From Bellilinea caldifistulae (GTDB taxonomy: Bacteria > Chloroflexota > Anaerolineae > Anaerolineales > Anaerolineaceae), in NCBI RefSeq assembly GCF_001306055.1, contig NZ_LGHJ01000014.1:150001-182000 (forward strand): DNA of 32,000 bases, in the 5' to 3' direction. Below are positions 4,401 through 12,886 of the stretch, in pieces. Both the position numbers and the translations under genes were made by a program. Numbering within the stretch: the stretch's first letter is position 1; each line of letters starts with the position of its first letter. Under the pieces are notes generated by a model. The model made no database searches and had not been told where the DNA came from. It was given only the letters and a program-made list of their open reading frames with translations.

Positions 4401-5837
4401 ATGAACCGACCCCTGCGCTGGTATGATTACATTACGATCAATATCTACTGGTTTGCGCTGACCACCCGTTCTCAGACCATTTCACCATTGATCCTGCCAC
4501 TGCTCGTTCAGCAATTCATAGGCGAGCAGGCCAAGGGAGCGGCTTTGGGAAACATCCGCTTATGGGCCTTGATGACTGCGGTACTGGTACAGGCGTTAAT
4601 GGGGATGCTTTCCGACCGGAGCACCCATCCCTGGGGCCGGCGCCGCCCGTTCATTCTGCTGGGTTCGCTGGGTGAGTTGATTGTTTTTGCCCTGCTCGGC
4701 TTTGTGGCGGGGATGGAAGGCATGAGCGGTTATACAGCCATGTTTGCCATCTACGTTTTTTCCATGGTTTCTTCCAACATTGCTCACGCGGCTACCCAGG
4801 GATTGATACCTGATTTGGTGCCGGAGGAAAAACGCGGTCGCTTTTCAGGGGTCAAAGCCCTGCTGGAACTGCCCGTGCCGGTGATTTTTGTTTCATTTGT
4901 CATGGGACGGCTGGTCAGTCAGGGGCAATTGTGGACGGCGTTGATGATTCTGATGGCGGTGTTGGTTATCTGCACGGCGCTGGCGATGTTGGTGCCGGAA
5001 AAGCGTTTGGAGCAGCCACCTTTCCCACTCGACTGGCAGGGATTCTTCCGGCTGACTTTGATGACGGTTGTTTTTACCCTGATCATTCTTGGGATGGGTG
5101 GAGTTGTGCGCTGGTTCTTAAACCTCTCCTTGCCGGAGGGTATTTTTAAGACGGTTGCGACAATTTTCGCCGGAATTCTCTCGATGGGGATTGCCGTGGC
5201 TTTGGGGGTGCTTGCCAGTTTGAGAATTGGGGTGGGTAAAGACATTCGCTATCAGCCCTCGTTCAAGTGGTGGGTGGTCAACCGGCTGGCATTCCTGGTG
5301 GGTTCAACCAATGTGGCAACTTTTCTGGTCTTCTTTTTGCAAGAACGCTTCCCGCAATTTGCAGGTGAAAAAGCGGCCGCGCCCGCGGCCACCATTACCA
5401 TGTTTGTGGGGGTATTTATCCTGCTCACGGCTTTACCGAGCGGTTTTTTAGCCGACCGCTTTGGAAAAAAGATTCTGGTGGCGATTGCCGGTCTGCTGGC
5501 TGCTGGCGGAATAGGTGTGATGCTGTTATTCCCAACACTGATAGCCCTGTATGCAGCCGGTTCACTGGTGGGAGCGGGGGTAGGGCTGTTTTACTCGGCT
5601 AACTGGGCTTTGGGCACGGAAATTGTTCCGCGCGAGCAAGCCGGGCGCTTCCTGGGGCTTTCTAACCTGGCCGGTGCGGGTGCAGGGGCAATTGGGGCAT
5701 ATATTGCCGGCCCAATTGCCGATGCCACCGGCTATACATTGATCATGGCGTTGTACGGTGTTTTGTTTCTCGCCTCAGTTTTGTTTTTGCCATATATTGA
5801 GGAAAAGCGAATTGGCTCATCACCGGTGGGCGGGTAA
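4401..5837 (+). CDS. MFS transporter (GPH/MelB-like motif)
   Basis: 478 aa with about 12 TM helices. The motif SDRSTHPWGRRRPFILLG resembles the D-R-x-x-x-x-G-R-R-R-P loop of glycoside-pentoside-hexuronide-type MFS carriers. Confidence 0.8.
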   Translation: MNRPLRWYDYITINIYWFALTTRSQTISPLILPLLVQQFIGEQAKGAALGNIRLWALMTAVLVQALMGMLSDRSTHPWGRRRPFILLGSLGELIVFALLGFVAGMEGMSGYTAMFAIYVFSMVSSNIAHAATQGLIPDLVPEEKRGRFSGVKALLELPVPVIFVSFVMGRLVSQGQLWTALMILMAVLVICTALAMLVPEKRLEQPPFPLDWQGFFRLTLMTVVFTLIILGMGGVVRWFLNLSLPEGIFKTVATIFAGILSMGIAVALGVLASLRIGVGKDIRYQPSFKWWVVNRLAFLVGSTNVATFLVFFLQERFPQFAGEKAAAPAATITMFVGVFILLTALPSGFLADRFGKKILVAIAGLLAAGGIGVMLLFPTLIALYAAGSLVGAGVGLFYSANWALGTEIVPREQAGRFLGLSNLAGAGAGAIGAYIAGPIADATGYTLIMALYGVLFLASVLFLPYIEEKRIGSSPVGG

Positions 5838-5865
5838 CCTTTTGCCGGTCTAATCCGTCTAAAAG
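5834..5865 (+). promoter_or_regulatory. Predicted ECF-sigma-dependent promoter of the sigma/anti-sigma operon (autoregulatory)
   Basis: GTAACCTTTTGccggtctaatcCGTCTAAAAG has AAC-N17-CGT geometry and lies about 15 nt upstream of the GTG start at 5881. It is a near-duplicate of the motif at 6728-6757. Confidence 0.6.
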
Positions 5866-5880
5866 TGAGGAAACCAGCGC

Positions 5881-6477
5881 GTGAATGAAGTGGAAATACT
5901 CCGTGGCTTGAAATCGGATCAACCTCAGGCGGCCCTGAGCCTGCTCTTTGAACAGTATGCCGACCGGGTTTACCATCTTGCGCTTGGTCTGCTTGGAAAT
6001 GAAGATGACGCCGAAGATGTCGTTCAGGATACTTTTCTCTCCGTATTTCGCAACCGCTTTCAGTTCGAGGGCCGGTCTTCAGCGGGCACCTGGCTTTACC
6101 GAATTGCCTATAATCTGAGTCTGGACCGGTTGCGGACAAAACAAACCCTGCCGCTGCCAGAAGAGGAGGGTGCGGATGACGAGGATCATCCTGCGCCTTT
6201 GCCGCGCGAATTTGTGGAGTGGCGCTGGCTGCCGGAGTATTTGATTCAGAATCAGGAACAGCGCAAGGCATTGGATGAGGCCATCCATTCCCTCTCGCCG
6301 GCTTTGCGGGCGGTGTTTTTACTGCGGGATGTGGAGGAACTGTCCACCGAGGAAACTGCGGCGGTGCTTTCAATTTCGGCTTCGGCAGTCAAGGTGCGCC
6401 TGCACCGCGCCCGGCTGGAATTGCGCGAAAAGTTGGCGGCTTTTTTTGCGGCTCAGGAGAAAGGAGCAGTGCAATGA
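5881..6477 (+). CDS. RNA polymerase ECF-type sigma-70 family factor
   Basis: 198 aa with a GTG start preceded by GAGGAA. Region 2 reads DDAEDVVQDTFLSVFRN...WLYRIAYNLSLDRLR. Region 4 reads LSPALRAVFLLRDVEELSTEETAAVLSISASAVKVRLHRARLELREKL. Confidence 0.92.
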   Translation: MNEVEILRGLKSDQPQAALSLLFEQYADRVYHLALGLLGNEDDAEDVVQDTFLSVFRNRFQFEGRSSAGTWLYRIAYNLSLDRLRTKQTLPLPEEEGADDEDHPAPLPREFVEWRWLPEYLIQNQEQRKALDEAIHSLSPALRAVFLLRDVEELSTEETAAVLSISASAVKVRLHRARLELREKLAAFFAAQEKGAVQ

Positions 6478-6731
6478 ATTGCGAGGAGTTAATCCGTTAT
6501 TTGTCGGATTATATTGACAACAATCTCAACGAAGACCTGCGTGCGGATGCGGAAGAACATCTGCGCACCTGCCATAATTGCCATGTGGTTCTGGATACCA
6601 CCCGAAAGACCATTCTGATGTATAAGGGCAGCCTCAAAGAGCCGATTCCTGCCCCGCGCCGAGAAGCCTTGTTTGATCGTCTGCTCAAAGCCATTTCAGA
6701 TCGAGAAGATTGCCCTCCCGAAGGAATGTAA
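6474..6731 (+). CDS. Zinc-finger (ZAS, H-x3-C-x2-C) anti-sigma factor, soluble, no TM segment
   Basis: 85 aa. Its ATG overlaps the sigma stop (ATGA at 6474-6477), implying translational coupling. Motif H29-LRT-C33-HN-C36 plus N-terminal C3. There is no hydrophobic segment, so the architecture is RsrA-like. Confidence 0.8.
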   Translation: MNCEELIRYLSDYIDNNLNEDLRADAEEHLRTCHNCHVVLDTTRKTILMYKGSLKEPIPAPRREALFDRLLKAISDREDCPPEGM

Positions 6732-6757
6732 CCTTTTGAGGGCTTCCTCGTCAAAAG
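6728..6757 (+). promoter_or_regulatory. Predicted ECF-sigma-dependent promoter for the DUF2892 and Trx-DUF2892 genes
   Basis: GTAACCTTTTGagggcttcctCGTCAAAAG has AAC-N16-CGT geometry. It overlaps the anti-sigma stop codon and lies about 40 nt upstream of the ATG at 6798. The 11-nt -35 block is identical to that of the site at 5834. Confidence 0.6.
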
Positions 6758-6797
6758 GGTAGAAGTTCAAACGATCATTCTGAAGGAGGAATAAGCC

Positions 6798-6998
6798 ATG
6801 TCTTTCGTAAATGAGTCAACCGTAGATCGGATTATCCGGGTTGTGGCAGGTGTTTTATTGTTAGCCCTTGGATGGGGCGGTGTGGTTACCGGTACGCTGG
6901 GTACTATCTTCAAATTCCTTGGTTTTTTACCGTTGTTGACCGGCCTGATCGGTTGGTGCCCGGCTTACTCCTTATTCAAATTCCGCACGAATTCCTGA
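6798..6998 (+). CDS. DUF2892 (YgaP-type transmembrane domain) small membrane protein
   Basis: 66 aa. VDRIIRVVAGVLLLALGWGG...LGFLPLLTGLIGWCPAYSLF matches the remembered DUF2892 pattern of DR-x-x-R, two TM helices and a C-P-x-Y motif. A strong AGGAGG RBS sits at 6784-6789. Confidence 0.8.
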   Translation: MSFVNESTVDRIIRVVAGVLLLALGWGGVVTGTLGTIFKFLGFLPLLTGLIGWCPAYSLFKFRTNS

Positions 6999-7013: not shown

Positions 7014-7082
7014 ATCGGCTGCTGGCTGAGAGACTTCTGGGTTGGGCATCACCCAACGCGGAGCGTTCAACCAGCAGCCGGT
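7014..7082 (+). other. Intercistronic structured element (long-range 10-bp GC stem enclosing an inner hairpin)
   Basis: CGGCTGCTGG (7016-7025) pairs perfectly with CCAGCAGCCG (7071-7080). Inner hairpin GTTGGG (7041-7046) / CCCAAC (7052-7057) with loop CATCA. No U-run follows on the plus strand. Confidence 0.5.
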
Positions 7083-7630: not shown

Positions 7631-8080
7631 TTAAGGCCCGCTTACGGTTGGATAACCAGCGTTACGCCAGGCGATAATACCGCCGCTAACGCTGGTTACT
7701 TTTTCGTAGCCGGCTTGCAGTAAAATATCCCGCCCGGCCTGACTGCGGTTACCCGAGCGACAGATTACCACAATTTCCTTGTCTTTTGGCACTTCACTGA
7801 TCCGCTGGGGCAGTTGATCCAACGGGATGAGCGTTGCCCCGGGAACATGCAGTTCATTCCATTCTTCCGGTTGGCGCACGTCCAAAACCCATGCGCCCTG
7901 GTCGCGAAGTTGAGCGGCTTGAGATACCGAAATTTCTGGCGGTAAAGCGCGGGTTTCCGCCGGGGAAGTGCGGGTGAGAAGGAAGGCAGCGCCTGCTATA
8001 AGGACAATTGCCAGCAGGATGGCATACACCGGAAAACGCCTGTGTTCAAATGAGCCTGAGGATGTCTTTTGACGAGTCAT
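7631..8080 (-). CDS. Membrane-anchored single-domain rhodanese (sulfurtransferase)
   Basis: 149 aa. N-terminal signal anchor (RRFPVYAILLAIVLIAGAAFLL) with most positive charge before the helix. Rhodanese active-site loop VVICRSGNRS. Its stop codon directly abuts the stop of the Trx-DUF2892 gene (TAATTA at 7628-7633). Confidence 0.85.
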   Translation of the reverse strand: MTRQKTSSGSFEHRRFPVYAILLAIVLIAGAAFLLTRTSPAETRALPPEISVSQAAQLRDQGAWVLDVRQPEEWNELHVPGATLIPLDQLPQRISEVPKDKEIVVICRSGNRSQAGRDILLQAGYEKVTSVSGGIIAWRNAGYPTVSGP

Positions 8081-8215
8081 GGATTGTTCCTGTCATGAGT
8101 GAGATTCAATCTATCGGTTTTGATTCAATTTTACGGTAAAGGTTACAGGATGTGGGGTAAAATAGAAACGGGTCATTATCCCTGATCAATCAAAGCGGAA
8201 GGGATATTCAAAAAA

Positions 8216-9607
8216 ATGTTCATCAGCCGGGAGAGTTTCAGCACCCATACTCTGGATGAGCACCCGCATGGGGAGATTGTCAAACGGGTGTTGTTCGCCG
8301 CTTTGCGGGCCGTGGATCCGGCTACTGCGGTGGCGCGCTTTCTCGAACGAGAGGGTGACCTGTTGTTTGCCGGAGGGCGGAGTTATGACCTCAGCCGTTA
8401 CCGACGCGTGTTTATCGTTGGAGCAGGCAAGGCCGCAGCACCGATGACCAAAGCCGCTGCCCGGATTCTGGGAGACCGCCTTTCGGGGGGAATGATTATC
8501 TGTAAAGAAGGTTTTTTGCGGGAAAATGCCGTCGGCGGAGCAATCCCCGAGCGGATTCAGGTGGCCGAAGCCTCTCACCCGCTGCCGGATATGCGCGGTG
8601 TGAATGCAACCCGTCGGATGCTTGCCCTGCTCAACCGGGCGAGTGAAAATGATCTGGTGCTGGCATTGATTTCCGGTGGTGGATCGGCGCTGATGACTGC
8701 CCCTGCCGAGGGAATTTCCCTGGCAGATTTGCAGTCTCTCACCAATTTGCTGCTGGCTTGCGGCGCTTCGATTGAAGAAATTAATACTCTGCGGAAACAT
8801 CTGGATGAAGTCAAGGGTGGCGGACTGGCGCGGGCGGCCGGCAAAGCCGATTTGCTGGCATTGATCCTCTCGGATGTGGTCGGCGATCCGCTGGATGTGA
8901 TCGCCTCCGGGCCAACCGTGGCTGACCCAACCACCTTTACGGATGCGCTGGCAATTTTACAACGGTACAATCTGGCAGAGCACACCCCACCCTCCATTCT
9001 TGAACGACTGCGCAGCGGTGCCGAAGGGAAAATACCCGAAACCCCAAAACCGGGAGATGGTTTGTTCCGGCGGGTTCAAAACCTGATCATTGCCAGTAAT
9101 CGGCATGCGGCTCAGGCTGCGGTTGAAGAAGCCGAAGAATGCGGACTGACCCCCCTGCTGCTGAGCACTTATTTACAAGGGGAAGCCCGTCAGTTGGGAA
9201 TGTTTTTGGGGTCAATTGCCCGTCAAATTCACGCCACCCGTCAGCCGCTACAACCGCCAGCCTGTTTGATTGCCGGTGGTGAGACGACAGTGACTCTTCA
9301 CGGAGATGGGCTGGGGGGACGCAATCAAGAAGTGGCACTCGGCGCCGTGCGCGGTTTGGACGGCACGCGCAATTTGCTGATGGTCACCCTGGCTTCCGAT
9401 GGTGACGACGGCCCCACGGATGCCGCCGGGGCGGTGGTCAGCGGAGAAACGTTACAAAGAGCCCTTGCCGCCGGAATGAAACCGGAAGATTATCTCGAGA
9501 GAAATGATTCTTACCATTTCTTTGATGCGCTGGGAGATTTGATCCGCACAGGCCCGACCCAGACAAACGTCAATGATTTGATGTTTCTGTTTGCTTTTGC
9601 GGATTGA
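8216..9607 (+). CDS. Glycerate 2-kinase / hydroxypyruvate reductase-like protein (DUF4147 + MOFRL family)
   Basis: 463 aa. FIVGAGKAAAPM in the N-terminal domain, and GGETTVTLHGDGLGGRNQEVALGA plus TNVNDL in the C-terminal MOFRL-type domain. No clear SD before the ATG at 8216, so the exact start is uncertain. Confidence 0.8.
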   Translation: MFISRESFSTHTLDEHPHGEIVKRVLFAALRAVDPATAVARFLEREGDLLFAGGRSYDLSRYRRVFIVGAGKAAAPMTKAAARILGDRLSGGMIICKEGFLRENAVGGAIPERIQVAEASHPLPDMRGVNATRRMLALLNRASENDLVLALISGGGSALMTAPAEGISLADLQSLTNLLLACGASIEEINTLRKHLDEVKGGGLARAAGKADLLALILSDVVGDPLDVIASGPTVADPTTFTDALAILQRYNLAEHTPPSILERLRSGAEGKIPETPKPGDGLFRRVQNLIIASNRHAAQAAVEEAEECGLTPLLLSTYLQGEARQLGMFLGSIARQIHATRQPLQPPACLIAGGETTVTLHGDGLGGRNQEVALGAVRGLDGTRNLLMVTLASDGDDGPTDAAGAVVSGETLQRALAAGMKPEDYLERNDSYHFFDALGDLIRTGPTQTNVNDLMFLFAFAD

Positions 9608-10289
9608 GACTTTCCAGCCCTGGCGGATTGGCTTTGGCAGTTGGTTGGGGTGTGATCTTGACCACCCGCCTTCGGCGATGGCGCGCCGAGAGGGCGCGTC
9701 TGAGCGGGGGGATTCGCACAATCAACAGCACAGCCAATACAACCGTGGCGGCTAGTGGTTTCCAAATATCTCCTTGCAGACGGAGAAAGTCGCCCTTGAC
9801 CGCCATGGCCAGATGAACGACCGCCAGCACGGCGGTGAGGTAAACCAGTTGGTGCAGGCGCTTCCATATTTTCCCCAGTGTTTTTTGCCACCAGCGATGG
9901 GAAGTCAATGCGAGGGGTGTCAGCAGGCTGATCGCCGCCAGTCCTATGAGGATATAGGGTTTATCGGCAATTGAGGCGTAAATCAGATTGAAGTCAAACT
10001 GATAATCCCAGCCGGTGTACGTGAGCATGTGCAGCGCTGCATAGAAGAAAGCGTACAGGCCAAGCGGGCGACGAAGTTTGAGCAACTGCGGAAGGTTGAA
10101 AAGGATGTGAAGGGGGGTCATCGTCAGAGAAGCCAGCAGGATGAGAATGGCGATATCCCCAGAGCGCTGGGTGGCTGCCTGGATCGGATTAATGGTCAGG
10201 TTATTGGTGAAGTAGGCAGCCGTCAACACCATTAACGGCAGCCAGCAGAGGATGTGAGTCAGCCATTGCAGGCGCGACCAGTTTTTCAT
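9570..10289 (-). CDS. msrQ: Protein-methionine-sulfoxide reductase heme-binding membrane subunit MsrQ (YedZ-like)
   Basis: The ORF track gives 9570-10352. I prefer the ATG at 10289 (MKNWSRLQWLTHILCWLPL...), 7 nt downstream of the msrP stop, which avoids overlap with msrP. Six TM helices with conserved His residues (ALHMLTY, VVHLAM) typical of the ferric-reductase-like YedZ family. The basic C-terminal tail overlaps the 3' end of the glycerate kinase gene by 38 nt. Confidence 0.8.
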   Translation of the reverse strand: MKNWSRLQWLTHILCWLPLMVLTAAYFTNNLTINPIQAATQRSGDIAILILLASLTMTPLHILFNLPQLLKLRRPLGLYAFFYAALHMLTYTGWDYQFDFNLIYASIADKPYILIGLAAISLLTPLALTSHRWWQKTLGKIWKRLHQLVYLTAVLAVVHLAMAVKGDFLRLQGDIWKPLAATVVLAVLLIVRIPPLRRALSARHRRRRVVKITPQPTAKANPPGLESLNPQKQTETSNH

Positions 10290-10296
10290 CGGCTTT

Positions 10297-11253
10297 TCAG
10301 TAATTAACCCGCAAGTCCATGTTGGCGTAAAGCTGCCCGACCTGCTCGGCATAACCGTTGAATAACAACGTTTCGCGGCGGCGGTTTTCGCCGATGCGCC
10401 GTTCGGTGGCCTGAGACCAGCGCGGGTGGGGCACTTCCGGGTTTACATTGGCATAAAAACCGTATTCATTAGGAGCAACCCTGTTCCAGAAGGTGGGCGG
10501 CATGGTTTCGGTGAGCTCGATTCTAACAATGGCTTTGCTGCTTTTGAAACCGTATTTCCACGGTACAGCCAGACGCAGCGGTGCTCCGTTTTGGGGGAGT
10601 AATTCCTTGCCGTACAGCCCGGTGACCAGCAGAGTCAAATCGTGGTAGGCTTCATCCAGCCGCAAGCCTTCGGTATAGGGCCATGGGTAAAAGGGGCTTC
10701 TTGCACCGGGCATGTTGTTCTCATCCAGAATTGTGGTGAACTGGACAAAGGCTGCACTGGTCATGGGCTCGACTTCTTTGAGCAGCAACGAAAGCGGAAA
10801 TCCGAGCCATGGGATGACCATAGACCAGCCTTCCACGCAGCGCAATCGGTAAACACGTTCTTCCTGCGGAAACTGGCGCAGGTCTTCGATGTCGAAAATG
10901 CGCGGCTTGTGAACCAGTCCGCTAACCTCCACCTGCCACGGACTGGTGGGAAAGTTTTTTGCCAGCGAAGCCACACCGCCCTTATCCATGGTGAATTCGT
11001 AATAATTGTTGTAGTTGGTAATTTCCTCAAAGGAATTGGCCGGGTCTCCCCGTTCATCGCGGGGGCGCTCCGCGGGGTTGATTGAGTCGGAATAACCAGG
11101 AGTGTTTTCAGACTGTGTTTTGATCCCACAGGCGGCCAACAAAGCCCCGGCTGCACCAACCGCCGCCAGTTTAAGGAATTGCCGTCGGTTCAGGTAAACG
11201 TGCTCGGGTGTGATTTCCGAGGAAGGGATGGGGGGAACAGTATTATTTTTCAT
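10297..11253 (-). CDS. msrP: Molybdopterin-dependent protein-methionine-sulfoxide reductase catalytic subunit MsrP (YedY-like), Tat-exported lipoprotein
   Basis: 318 aa. Twin-arginine signal NRRQFLKLAAVGAAGALLAAC with a lipobox Cys. YedY-type core (NNYYEF, YRLRCVEGWSMVIPWLGFPL, LRLAVPWKYGFKSSKAIVRIE). Confidence 0.88.
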   Translation of the reverse strand: MKNNTVPPIPSSEITPEHVYLNRRQFLKLAAVGAAGALLAACGIKTQSENTPGYSDSINPAERPRDERGDPANSFEEITNYNNYYEFTMDKGGVASLAKNFPTSPWQVEVSGLVHKPRIFDIEDLRQFPQEERVYRLRCVEGWSMVIPWLGFPLSLLLKEVEPMTSAAFVQFTTILDENNMPGARSPFYPWPYTEGLRLDEAYHDLTLLVTGLYGKELLPQNGAPLRLAVPWKYGFKSSKAIVRIELTETMPPTFWNRVAPNEYGFYANVNPEVPHPRWSQATERRIGENRRRETLLFNGYAEQVGQLYANMDLRVNY

Positions 11254-11499: not shown

Positions 11500-12192
11500 A
11501 TGAAGAGGCAATTTCTCATTTCTAACCTGCTGATCGTTATGGTGTTTTTACTGACAGCCTGTGCACCCGGTGGGGTCGTTCCGGCTACGGTTCAAGAAAA
11601 TACCCCCCTGCCTGTTTCGACCGGGGTTGATGAGATGAAAAGCGAGTCAGTAACACCCGATGGAGATGAAAACAACGCTTCGCAATCGCAGTCACAAACG
11701 CCGATCGAAGAGGGTGAATCTTCACCTGATACGCAGACCCTGCCGGACTGGTTTAAGGTGGAATTGGTTAATGTAGAAAACGATGAGGTATTCACAATCG
11801 AATCCCTGACGGGAAAAGTAATCCTCGTTGAAACGATGGCGCAGTGGTGTTCCAATTGTTTGCGCCAACAACAAGAGGTCAAAGCCTTACATCAGTTACT
11901 GGGTGAGCGGGAGGATTTTGTGAGCATTGGCCTGGATATTGATCCCAACGAAGATGCCGCTACGCTCAAGAGCTACATTGCCCGGCATGAATTCAATTGG
12001 ATTTATGCGGTTTCCCCAGCGGAAGTCTCGCGTTCGCTGAGCGATCTCTATGGGCCTCAATTTCTATCGCCCCCCTCGACCCCGATGCTCATCATTGATC
12101 GGGCAGGCAGCGTGTATCCTTTACCCATGGGAATCAAATCGGCAGAGCGATTGAGGGAATTTTTACAGCCTTACTTAGAAACCAATCGTTGA
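11500..12192 (+). CDS. TlpA/ResA-like extracytoplasmic thiol-disulfide oxidoreductase lipoprotein
   Basis: 230 aa. Lipoprotein signal MKRQFLISNLLIVMVFLLTAC, an acidic low-complexity linker, and a thioredoxin fold with the WCSNC active site. RBS GGAGAAAGG. Confidence 0.8.
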   Translation: MKRQFLISNLLIVMVFLLTACAPGGVVPATVQENTPLPVSTGVDEMKSESVTPDGDENNASQSQSQTPIEEGESSPDTQTLPDWFKVELVNVENDEVFTIESLTGKVILVETMAQWCSNCLRQQQEVKALHQLLGEREDFVSIGLDIDPNEDAATLKSYIARHEFNWIYAVSPAEVSRSLSDLYGPQFLSPPSTPMLIIDRAGSVYPLPMGIKSAERLREFLQPYLETNR

Positions 12193-12205
12193 AGGGTTGT
12201 GAAGC

Positions 12206-12886
12206 GTGGAGAACATCTTGACTTCACTGACCATCGGATTGCTGGCAACCACCAGTCCATGCGTTTTTCCACTTTACCCGGGCTATCTGGCTTATTTGAG
12301 CGGCGGTCATGAAAAATTGCAAGAAAGCAAGGGCCGATTTTTACTCGGCTTTTTCGTGCTTTGTGGGGTATTGAGTATGATGCTGGCAATTGGGCTGCTG
12401 ATTGCCTTGCTGGCAATACCCATCGGAAATGCGCTTTCCCTGGTTATCCCGTTGGCAAATGGATTGATCTTTCTACTTGGAGTTTTATTATTGCTGAACA
12501 TCAATCCGTTCAAATCTTTGCCGATGATTCGCATTCCTGTTCTTCAAAATCCGTATTTGAATGCTTTTGTTTATGGACTGCTCTACGGACCAATTGCGTT
12601 GCCTTGTGCCGGCCCGCTGGTTGTGAGTGTGTTTGCCCTTTCGCTGAGTGCCGGGGAACTTATTAACCGGTTAAGCACTTTCTTATGGTTTGGTTTGGGA
12701 TTTGGTCTACCACTGCTGTTGCTTTCTTTTCTGGCTGGAGCCCAGCAGCGGTGGATTACCCGTCAATTCGCCCGCTACGGGAATTGGGTAAATCGAATTG
12801 GGGGCATCATTTTGATCACGATAGCCGTGGTGGATCTGGCATCGAATTGGGAGTTGATTCGGTTTACATGGTCGCGATTCAACTAA
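12206..12886 (+). CDS. ccdA: CcdA/DsbD-family transmembrane thiol-disulfide electron transporter
   Basis: 226 aa with a GTG start and 6 TM helices. The two signature membrane-embedded cysteines are present: TSPCVFPLYPGYL and PIALPCAGPLV. Confidence 0.85.
   Translation: MENILTSLTIGLLATTSPCVFPLYPGYLAYLSGGHEKLQESKGRFLLGFFVLCGVLSMMLAIGLLIALLAIPIGNALSLVIPLANGLIFLLGVLLLLNINPFKSLPMIRIPVLQNPYLNAFVYGLLYGPIALPCAGPLVVSVFALSLSAGELINRLSTFLWFGLGFGLPLLLLSFLAGAQQRWITRQFARYGNWVNRIGGIILITIAVVDLASNWELIRFTWSRFN

Follow-up and report, generated by a model that had tools for sequence, protein, structure and literature searches.

The 32,000-nucleotide stretch of the Bellilinea caldifistulae genome analysed here (contig NZ_LGHJ01000014.1, positions 150,001 to 182,000; hereafter the window) carries a gene cluster for an extracytoplasmic function (ECF) sigma factor, a zinc-finger anti-sigma factor, a small DUF2892 membrane protein, a thioredoxin-DUF2892 fusion (Trx-DUF2892) and, on the opposite strand, a membrane-anchored rhodanese (Table 1). 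Our subject is a motif that recurs between the genes of this cluster: an earlier note on this DNA had described two copies, one before the sigma gene and one before the DUF2892 gene, and had predicted from them that the sigma factor drives itself, DUF2892 and Trx-DUF2892. The sigma factor consists of domains 2 and 4 only (Pfam Sigma70_r2, 68.7 bits, residues 22-88; r4_2, 60 bits, residues 129-181). It scores 106 bits with the sigma70-ECF model TIGR02937 (cutoff 42.9) and falls below every equivalog cutoff among the NCBIfam models; its nearest relatives are proteins of Bellilinea, of other Anaerolineae and of Chloroflexota metagenome-assembled genomes. The start of the anti-sigma gene overlaps the sigma stop by 4 nt (ATGA), and the pairing of the two genes recurs in every orthologous locus retrieved by protein look-up (L081-L093). 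The anti-sigma protein carries the class I zinc-associated anti-sigma (ZAS) pattern, H-x3-C-x2-C plus a cysteine about 26 residues before it, in the form C3-x25-H29-x3-C33-x2-C36, which is kept in 11 orthologs; its sequence contains no transmembrane or hydrophobic segment. Its best NCBIfam model is RsrA (TIGR03988), with 27.2 bits against a cutoff of 62.5 and thus below equivalog level, and a PDB sequence search with this protein returned only noise, no solved anti-sigma factor being detectable. The DUF2892 protein has a conserved C-terminal cysteine (GWCPAYSLF), and Trx-DUF2892 exceeds the cutoff of TIGR01068 (104.9 bits against 96.8). A transmembrane helix lies at the N terminus of the rhodanese, whose active-site loop is CRSGNRS; the gene is syntenic in L081-L087 and L089.

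Table 1. Genes and predicted regulatory elements of the cluster and its surroundings, in window coordinates.
Feature	Coordinates	Strand	Basis or constituent elements
Major facilitator superfamily (MFS) transporter	4401-5837		Pfam
P1, predicted autoregulatory ECF promoter of the sigma/anti-sigma operon	5833..5865	+	-35 (G)GTAACCTTTT 5833-5843, -10 CCGTCTAAA 5855-5863
ECF (group 4) sigma factor, 198 aa, GTG start after GAGGAAA	5881..6477	+	Pfam, TIGR02937
Zinc-finger (ZAS-type) anti-sigma factor, 85 aa, cytoplasmic	6474..6731	+	Pfam zf-HC2, 35.5 bits (cutoff 22.2)
P2, predicted ECF promoter of DUF2892 (and of Trx-DUF2892 by read-through)	6727..6757	+	-35 TGTAACCTTTT 6727-6737, -10 TCGTCAAAA 6748-6756
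DUF2892/YgaP-like two-helix membrane protein, 66 aa	6798..6998	+	Pfam PF11127, 68.3 bits
Very stable intercistronic stem-loop, DUF2892/Trx-DUF2892	7014..7082	+	-45.9 kcal/mol, z = -4.1
Thioredoxin (WCGPC) fused to a C-terminal DUF2892 membrane domain, 172 aa	7112..7630	+	Pfam Thioredoxin, 97.4 bits; YgaP-like_TM, 36.8 bits
Membrane-anchored single-domain rhodanese (sulfurtransferase), 149 aa	7631..8080	-	Pfam Rhodanese, 72 bits
P3, candidate third promoter of the same class, rhodanese gene	8118..8147	-	-35 TGTAACCTTTA 8147-8137, variant -10 GAATCAAAA 8126-8118
MsrQ and MsrP-like proteins (Ferric_reduct; Oxidored_molyb with twin-arginine translocation (TAT) signal)	9570-11253	-	Pfam
Redoxin and DsbD_TM pair, divergent	11500-12886	+	Pfam

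Both copies of the motif described in the earlier note lie on the plus strand. Site 1 is composed of GTAACCTTTTG (5834-5844), an 11-nt spacer (CCGGTCTAATC) and CGTCTAAAAG (5856-5865), with the sigma GTG at 5881, 15 nt past its end; site 2 is composed of GTAACCTTTTG (6728-6738), a 10-nt spacer (AGGGCTTCCT) and CGTCAAAAG (6749-6757), with the DUF2892 ATG at 6798, 40 nt past its end. The coordinates, sequences and distances that had been given for these two intergenic copies of a GTAACCTTTTG-N10/11-CGTC(T/A)AAAAG-type motif are exact, and so is the overlap of site 2 with the anti-sigma stop codon, whose TAA (6729-6731) is part of the GTAACC of the site. Overlooked at that stage was the same arrangement at site 1, where the MFS transporter stop codon (TAA, 5835-5837) lies within GTAACC. 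In the two syntenic orthologs looked at in this respect (L085 and L087), the MFS gene call also ends within GTAAC; the overlap of the anti-sigma stop with the -35 block is absent in L081 and L083, whose anti-sigma genes end slightly sooner, by a few bases. Read as promoters, the two sites (P1 and P2) have the AAC-N16/17-CGT geometry that had been ascribed to them, with N17 at P1 and N16 at P2, and transcription would be expected to start near 5866-5868 and near 6759-6761, respectively. The prediction of ECF promoters from this geometry, from autoregulation and from conserved neighbourhoods is standard and has been done systematically (PMC7826278). The pattern GTAACCTTTTG-N9-12-CGTC has two matches in the window against 0.00 expected from 100 dinucleotide shuffles, which bears out the earlier statement that such a repeat is unlikely to arise by chance; the looser, minimal pattern GTAACC-N13-17-CGTC has two matches against 0.11 expected. 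The spacers and flanks of the two sites have no sequence in common and, their likeness being confined to the two blocks, they are therefore not a duplicated segment.

The earlier note had also suggested looking for the motif upstream of orthologous gene pairs in related genomes. Orthologous loci were fetched singly (L081-L093; sigma identities of 88, 87, 70, 70, 61, 60, 56, 55, 55 and 52%), and the order MFS transporter, sigma, anti-sigma, DUF2892, Trx-DUF2892 and rhodanese is largely syntenic among them. The motif is conserved in 11 orthologous loci with free spacers: at 52-88% sigma identity, the only blocks that survive are TGTAAC(C/T)TTT and C(G/A)TC(T/A/C)AA. When the 11 sigma-upstream regions are aligned from the diverged flank to the ribosome-binding site, all sequences agree only at G-T-A-A-x-C and T-C-x-A-A, and both the spacer and the flanks diverge. 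The intergenic site between the anti-sigma and DUF2892 genes has the same footprint pattern, P2 being kept in L081-L089, L091 and L092. In L090, which has no DUF2892 gene, the motif stands directly before Trx-DUF2892. A chance similarity, or a functionless remnant of a local duplication, might be proposed in view of the short A/T-rich words that recur in intergenic DNA and of the several unrelated 10-11-nt repeats present in the same 2.6 kb. However, no match is expected in shuffles, there is no similarity past the two blocks, and orthologous loci whose sigma proteins are as little as 52% identical still have the sites in the same place, around spacers that have diverged. Because of this cross-genome conservation we exclude both chance and duplication, to which we attach next to no credence; the duplication remnant had in any case been rejected, the sites being alike only in their two blocks.

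Site 2 is partly palindromic, with an 11-nt inverted repeat (TAACCTTTTGA / TCAAAAGGGTA) that the earlier note had overlooked. The predicted fold of this repeat (-11.6 kcal/mol), the reverse reading of the site (13.3 bits) and the exact coincidence of both sites with the stop codon of the preceding gene would suit hairpins that stabilise or terminate the 3' ends of the MFS and anti-sigma transcripts, or a palindromic repressor operator, rather than promoters. However, the sites fold no better than shuffled sequences (z = -1.3 for site 2 and -0.9 for site 1), neither is followed by a U-tract, and a terminator scan was negative at both. The palindrome is missing at site 1 in orthologs (for instance CCTTCTT...CTAAATC in L081), P2 is detached from the anti-sigma stop in L081 and L083, and the conserved blocks are asymmetric (GTAAC vs CGTC) and strictly oriented to the downstream gene. 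The hairpin, terminator or operator reading was rejected on the folding results, the missing U-tract and the unconserved palindrome of site 1, and we regard it as very improbable.

The promoter reading is also consistent with searches beyond the two sites themselves. A two-block position weight matrix (PWM) was built from 18 sites, none of them from the window or from its 87-88% relatives. In the window, this matrix ranks site 2 first (33.9 bits), followed by site 1 (27.8 bits) and by a site upstream of the rhodanese gene (22.3 bits); the next match (13.3 bits) is the partly palindromic site 2 read in reverse, everything else scores at most 8.4 bits, and the maximum over 200 window shuffles is 19.4 bits. 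Across 184 kb of orthologous loci, some of which had given training sites to the PWM (L081-L084 and L091-L093 had not), 25 of the 26 matches that reach 16 bits are found 6-48 nt ahead of the start of a sigma, DUF2892, Trx-DUF2892 or rhodanese gene, on the coding strand. The only strong match in the orthologous loci that does not precede a cluster gene is found in L091 at 11277 on the minus strand (22.0 bits; TGTAACTCTTT-N10-ACATCTAAA), antisense within a gene for a PAS-domain sensor; it is a spurious match or else a promoter of antisense transcription. A scan of a genome collection with the sigma alignment added distant loci of about 45-54% identity. Among the matches listed, the motif precedes the sigma gene in L001, L009-L013 and L061, among others; DUF2892 where that gene is divergent (L009), tandem (L011) or 1.7 kb upstream (L006); thioredoxin-fold genes in L005, L017 and L018; and a ferritin-like gene in L031, Pfam serving to assign the genes. 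Motif-preceded DUF2892 homologs in distant loci are those of L006, L009 and L124. The motif stays with the same gene families despite the changed gene order, and the motif-linked genes of these relatives include thioredoxin-fold and ferritin genes beyond the set present in the window.

Two promoter types, with CGTC or CATC at the -10 position, occur among the related sigma factors: the motif lies upstream of 21 related sigma genes, as CGTC in 11 cases and as CATC in 10, and the P1-type and P2-type (DUF2892/Trx) promoters agree in their -10 type in each of the 12 genomes in which both were found. In the alignment of the 21 sigma proteins, residue 82 is the sole column that splits the two types perfectly, the CGTC sigmas having D (ten) or S (one) and the CATC sigmas M (seven), E (two) or A (one). 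This residue (codon 6124-6126) belongs to the region-2.4 helix, WLYRIAYNLSLD(82)RLR, at the end of region 2. Since the end of sigma region 2 contacts the upstream edge of the -10 element, the covariation fits a direct read-out, and it is suggestive of the neighbouring sigma factor reading the motif. Neighbour-joining puts the CATC type at two or more points of the tree, with the CGTC-type L091 falling among L090, L092 and L093.

The rhodanese site (P3) had likewise escaped the earlier note. Minus-strand positions 8147-8138, ahead of the rhodanese gene, spell out TGTAACCTTT exactly, and the full site reads TGTAACCTTTA-ccgtaaaatt-GAATCAAAA, which corresponds to AAC-N16-AATC and ends 37 nt before the rhodanese ATG. 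Its PWM score was reached in none of 200 window shuffles. In all six syntenic loci (the window and five orthologs), the best PWM match within 150 nt before the rhodanese gene occupies the same place, 36-43 nt before the ATG, with scores of 22.3, 9.8, 15.0, 5.3, 7.9 and 17.1 bits, the 95th and 99th percentiles of the corresponding null being 1.6 and 7.3 bits. The site thus reads as conserved yet degenerate. Because it has an AATC -10 in a genome whose sigma factor has D82, P3 is weaker or less certain as a promoter. A direct repeat, ACCGTAAAATTGAATC / ACCGATAGATTGAATC (8137-8122 and 8118-8103 on the minus strand; 19-nt spacing, 81% identity), covers the putative rhodanese -10 and leader and is weakly kept in L083; it could be the site of a regulator or a matter of chance. 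A further candidate nearby was discarded: the 11-nt CTCGTCAAAAG covering the -10 block of site 2 (6747-6757) recurs inverted at 8066-8076 (minus strand), in the first rhodanese codons, and was judged a chance match, having no AAC/-35 at the right distance and no conservation in orthologs, with about one such pair expected by chance.

The motif also extends beyond this sigma lineage. An exact-motif scan of metagenome contigs gave 96 matches in 80 loci among the matches listed. Nineteen of these lie 0-10 nt before open reading frames for ECF sigma factors 31-41% identical to that of the window, and about 35 lie before a gene for a small DUF6249-like membrane protein, which in the paired cases is divergent from the ECF sigma gene; several are on human-gut contigs. 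Further matches stand directly before Trx-DUF2892 (L104 and L148) or before DUF2892 (L124). Back-to-back pairs of TGTAACCTTTT-N10/11-CGTC(T/A)AA, with one copy toward the ECF sigma gene and the other toward the divergent DUF6249-like gene, were seen in L097 (9511-9592), L099 (1442-1523), L111 (2959-3040), L127 (4237-4318), L170 (4267-4370) and others; since the sigma factors concerned are 31-41% identical to that of the window, a different ECF lineage uses the same consensus. Judged from these sequences, the motif is not specific to the window sigma, and its presence before other ECF sigma genes therefore points to a general ECF promoter class common to several lineages, which strengthens the promoter reading and lowers its novelty. 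The sites might then be ECF-class promoters read mainly by a paralogous ECF sigma factor encoded elsewhere, adjacency being only partly relevant. The identical consensus before unrelated ECF sigma genes on many metagenome contigs implies that several ECF lineages share one specificity, overlapping promoter recognition is a feature of sigmaW, sigmaX and sigmaM in Bacillus subtilis, and the ATC-type -10 of P3 is at odds with the D82 rule. However, the motif accompanies this sigma ortholog in every genome examined, P1 lies directly before its own sigma gene in 21 loci, and the residue with which the -10 variant covaries belongs to this very sigma; we consider recognition mainly by a paralog unlikely.

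With recognition by the neighbouring sigma factor as the preferred reading, the position of Trx-DUF2892 calls for separate treatment. None of 200 shuffles was as stable as the stem-loop that separates this gene from DUF2892; it has no U-tract and no Rfam match, Rfam giving no matches over the whole window. The DUF2892/Trx intergenic sequences are too divergent for consensus folding, and each was folded alone: a hairpin of unconserved sequence is predicted at the same position in seven of seven orthologs (for instance L081 9135-9220, L083 9144-9211, L087 9166-9196, L088 2549-2588 and L089 9181-9220), with z between -1.85 and -6.74 and two of them weak. The L088 hairpin is a canonical terminator, a stem followed by U7 about 20 nt before the next start codon. 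Since the PWM finds no motif between the two genes in the window, this motif-free gap and the strong stem-loop imply that Trx-DUF2892 needs read-through from P2. Probably acting as a partial terminator or as an element of mRNA stability, the stem-loop would govern how much of each product is made, with Trx-DUF2892 probably held at a lower level than DUF2892. The predicted membership of Trx-DUF2892 in the regulon is independently supported by L090, L104 and L148, in which the gene was called by precomputed Pfam, by Pfam and by blastp, respectively. The wiring predicted in the earlier note, in which the sigma factor drives itself, DUF2892 and Trx-DUF2892, thus gains in-silico support as regards P1 and P2; for Trx-DUF2892 it holds only by way of read-through of the stem-loop, and the rhodanese site was missing from its list.

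Based on the conserved footprint, the PWM recovery, the position and orientation of the copies, their linkage to the same gene families and the residue-82 covariation, we think it highly probable that the two sites, and probably also 8147-8118 on the minus strand, are ECF promoters recognised by the sigma factor encoded at 5881-6477. Several points weigh against this conclusion. The residue-82 covariation comes from 21 related sequences, with statistics that ignore kinship. The same consensus serves other ECF sigmas, and a paralog encoded in the same genome could therefore act at these sites. The -35 of P3 decays in orthologs (TGCAACC, TGTCACC), with scores down to 5-15 bits, and P3 has GAATC where a D82 sigma would be expected to prefer CGTC. 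Trx-DUF2892 stands behind a strong hairpin, a true terminator in L088. Finally, zinc-finger anti-sigmas are not all redox sensors, and the thiol signal proposed below is therefore drawn from analogy and from the genes that the regulon contains. Sigma dependence, the start sites, the nature of the signal and the read-through of the stem-loop are what we infer from the whole of these data.

The circuit follows the textbook ECF pattern and is a known kind of bacterial circuit, here in an unstudied Chloroflexota lineage. As in SigR-RsrA of Streptomyces coelicolor and SigH-RshA of mycobacteria and corynebacteria (ECF12), which respond to thiol-oxidative stress, the sigma factor is co-transcribed with a small soluble zinc-binding anti-sigma of the C-x25-H-x3-C-x2-C type in an operon that is probably autoregulated, and the predicted regulon of the window has thioredoxin and sulfur/thiol enzymes. 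However, the window anti-sigma fails the RsrA equivalog test (27.2 against 62.5 bits), the SigR promoter consensus is GGAAT-N18-GTT as against TGTAACCTTT-N12-CGTCTAA here, and the SigR-RsrA targets are TrxBA or mycothiol genes, whereas membrane DUF2892 proteins take this place in the window; to our knowledge, Chloroflexota are not known to make mycothiol. The closest solved structures to the window sigma are mycobacterial SigE (9m9d, 2.9e-23) and SigW (5wuq, 7.4e-23). The SigW promoter of Bacillus subtilis (ECF30), TGAAAC-N16-CGTA, resembles those described here in its AAC -35 followed by a T-tract and in its CGT -10, and RsiW shares the zinc-finger anti-sigma domain. However, the window sigma fails the SigW equivalog test (PRK09641, 108.5 bits against a cutoff of 209), and RsiW is membrane-anchored and removed by regulated proteolysis, whereas the window anti-sigma has no membrane segment. 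Caulobacter crescentus sigmaF (ECF16) uses GTAACC-N16-CGAA (PMC3511200), identical to the present sites in -35 hexamer and spacing but with CGAA instead of CGTC at -10. The sigmaF-NrsF regulon is small, local, autoregulated and responsive to chemical stress, with target genes that differ from those found here. NrsF is a multi-pass membrane anti-sigma (DUF1109), as opposed to the zinc-finger anti-sigma of the window.

The predicted targets can be compared with Escherichia coli YgaP, which joins a rhodanese domain to a DUF2892/YgaP-like transmembrane domain (PMC4730233). The same two modules are present in the predicted regulon, but divided among three genes, which encode a rhodanese that has a transmembrane helix to itself, a DUF2892 protein on its own and a thioredoxin-DUF2892 fusion, as against a single protein in YgaP. 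We know of no report that places YgaP under ECF control. A DUF2892 gene of Azospira is induced about 10-fold by H2S (PMC5358917). The main text of Casas-Pastor 2021 (ECF Hub) names no ECF group with this gene context, and nothing was found in the literature on this system in Anaerolineae or on DUF2892 with ECF sigma factors.

The following scheme can be proposed. At rest, the 85-aa zinc-finger anti-sigma (6474-6731) would hold the sigma factor. A thiol-reactive signal (an oxidant, an electrophile or a reactive sulfur species) would attack the Zn-binding Cys/His cluster of the anti-sigma and so free the sigma factor, with which RNA polymerase would start at P1, yielding sigma and anti-sigma and hence both positive and negative feedback; at P2, yielding DUF2892 and, via the leaky stem-loop, Trx-DUF2892; and more weakly at P3, yielding the membrane rhodanese. 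Together, these products would resemble parts of a YgaP-type membrane sulfurtransferase plus thioredoxin. Given the putative cytoplasmic zinc-thiolate sensor, the predicted autoregulated operon and the presence of thioredoxin among the predicted targets, the circuit most likely works like the SigR-RsrA thiol switch, yet outside that family, and a thiol or reactive-sulfur signal is our best guess. More tentatively, and with rather less confidence than an even chance would warrant, this may be an uncharacterised thiol/reactive-sulfur response widespread in Chloroflexota, in which a zinc-finger switch controls a "split YgaP" (DUF2892, Trx-DUF2892 and the anchored rhodanese) and residue 82 (D vs M, E or A) reads G or A in the -10 element. 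If so, DUF2892 would gain a first testable role, as a membrane partner in a thiol/persulfide relay, and residue 82 of the sigma factor would decide whether G or A is read at the first variable -10 base.

The chief added value of this analysis lies in these two points: DUF2892 gains a functional link that can be tested, and the sigma factor a candidate specificity residue. The predicted wiring diagram, concrete and testable, ties the poorly understood DUF2892/YgaP-like domain to thioredoxin and rhodanese under one stress-responsive sigma factor in the Anaerolineae (Bellilinea-like) lineage, and the conditions that it suggests applying are thiol oxidants, either sulfide or persulfide, and either cyanide or thiosulfate. 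The coupling of a G/A switch at -10 to a single sigma residue amounts to a natural experiment, on a small scale, in the promoter specificity of ECF factors, and it may be of use in the design of orthogonal ECF parts.

The PWM found no further copies of the motif before the MFS transporter, msrPQ or redoxin/DsbD genes of the window (nothing above 8.4 bits); msrPQ and the redoxin/DsbD pair, having no ECF motif, therefore appear to be regulated separately. With these two gene groups, the surroundings of the cluster are rich in redox-repair genes.

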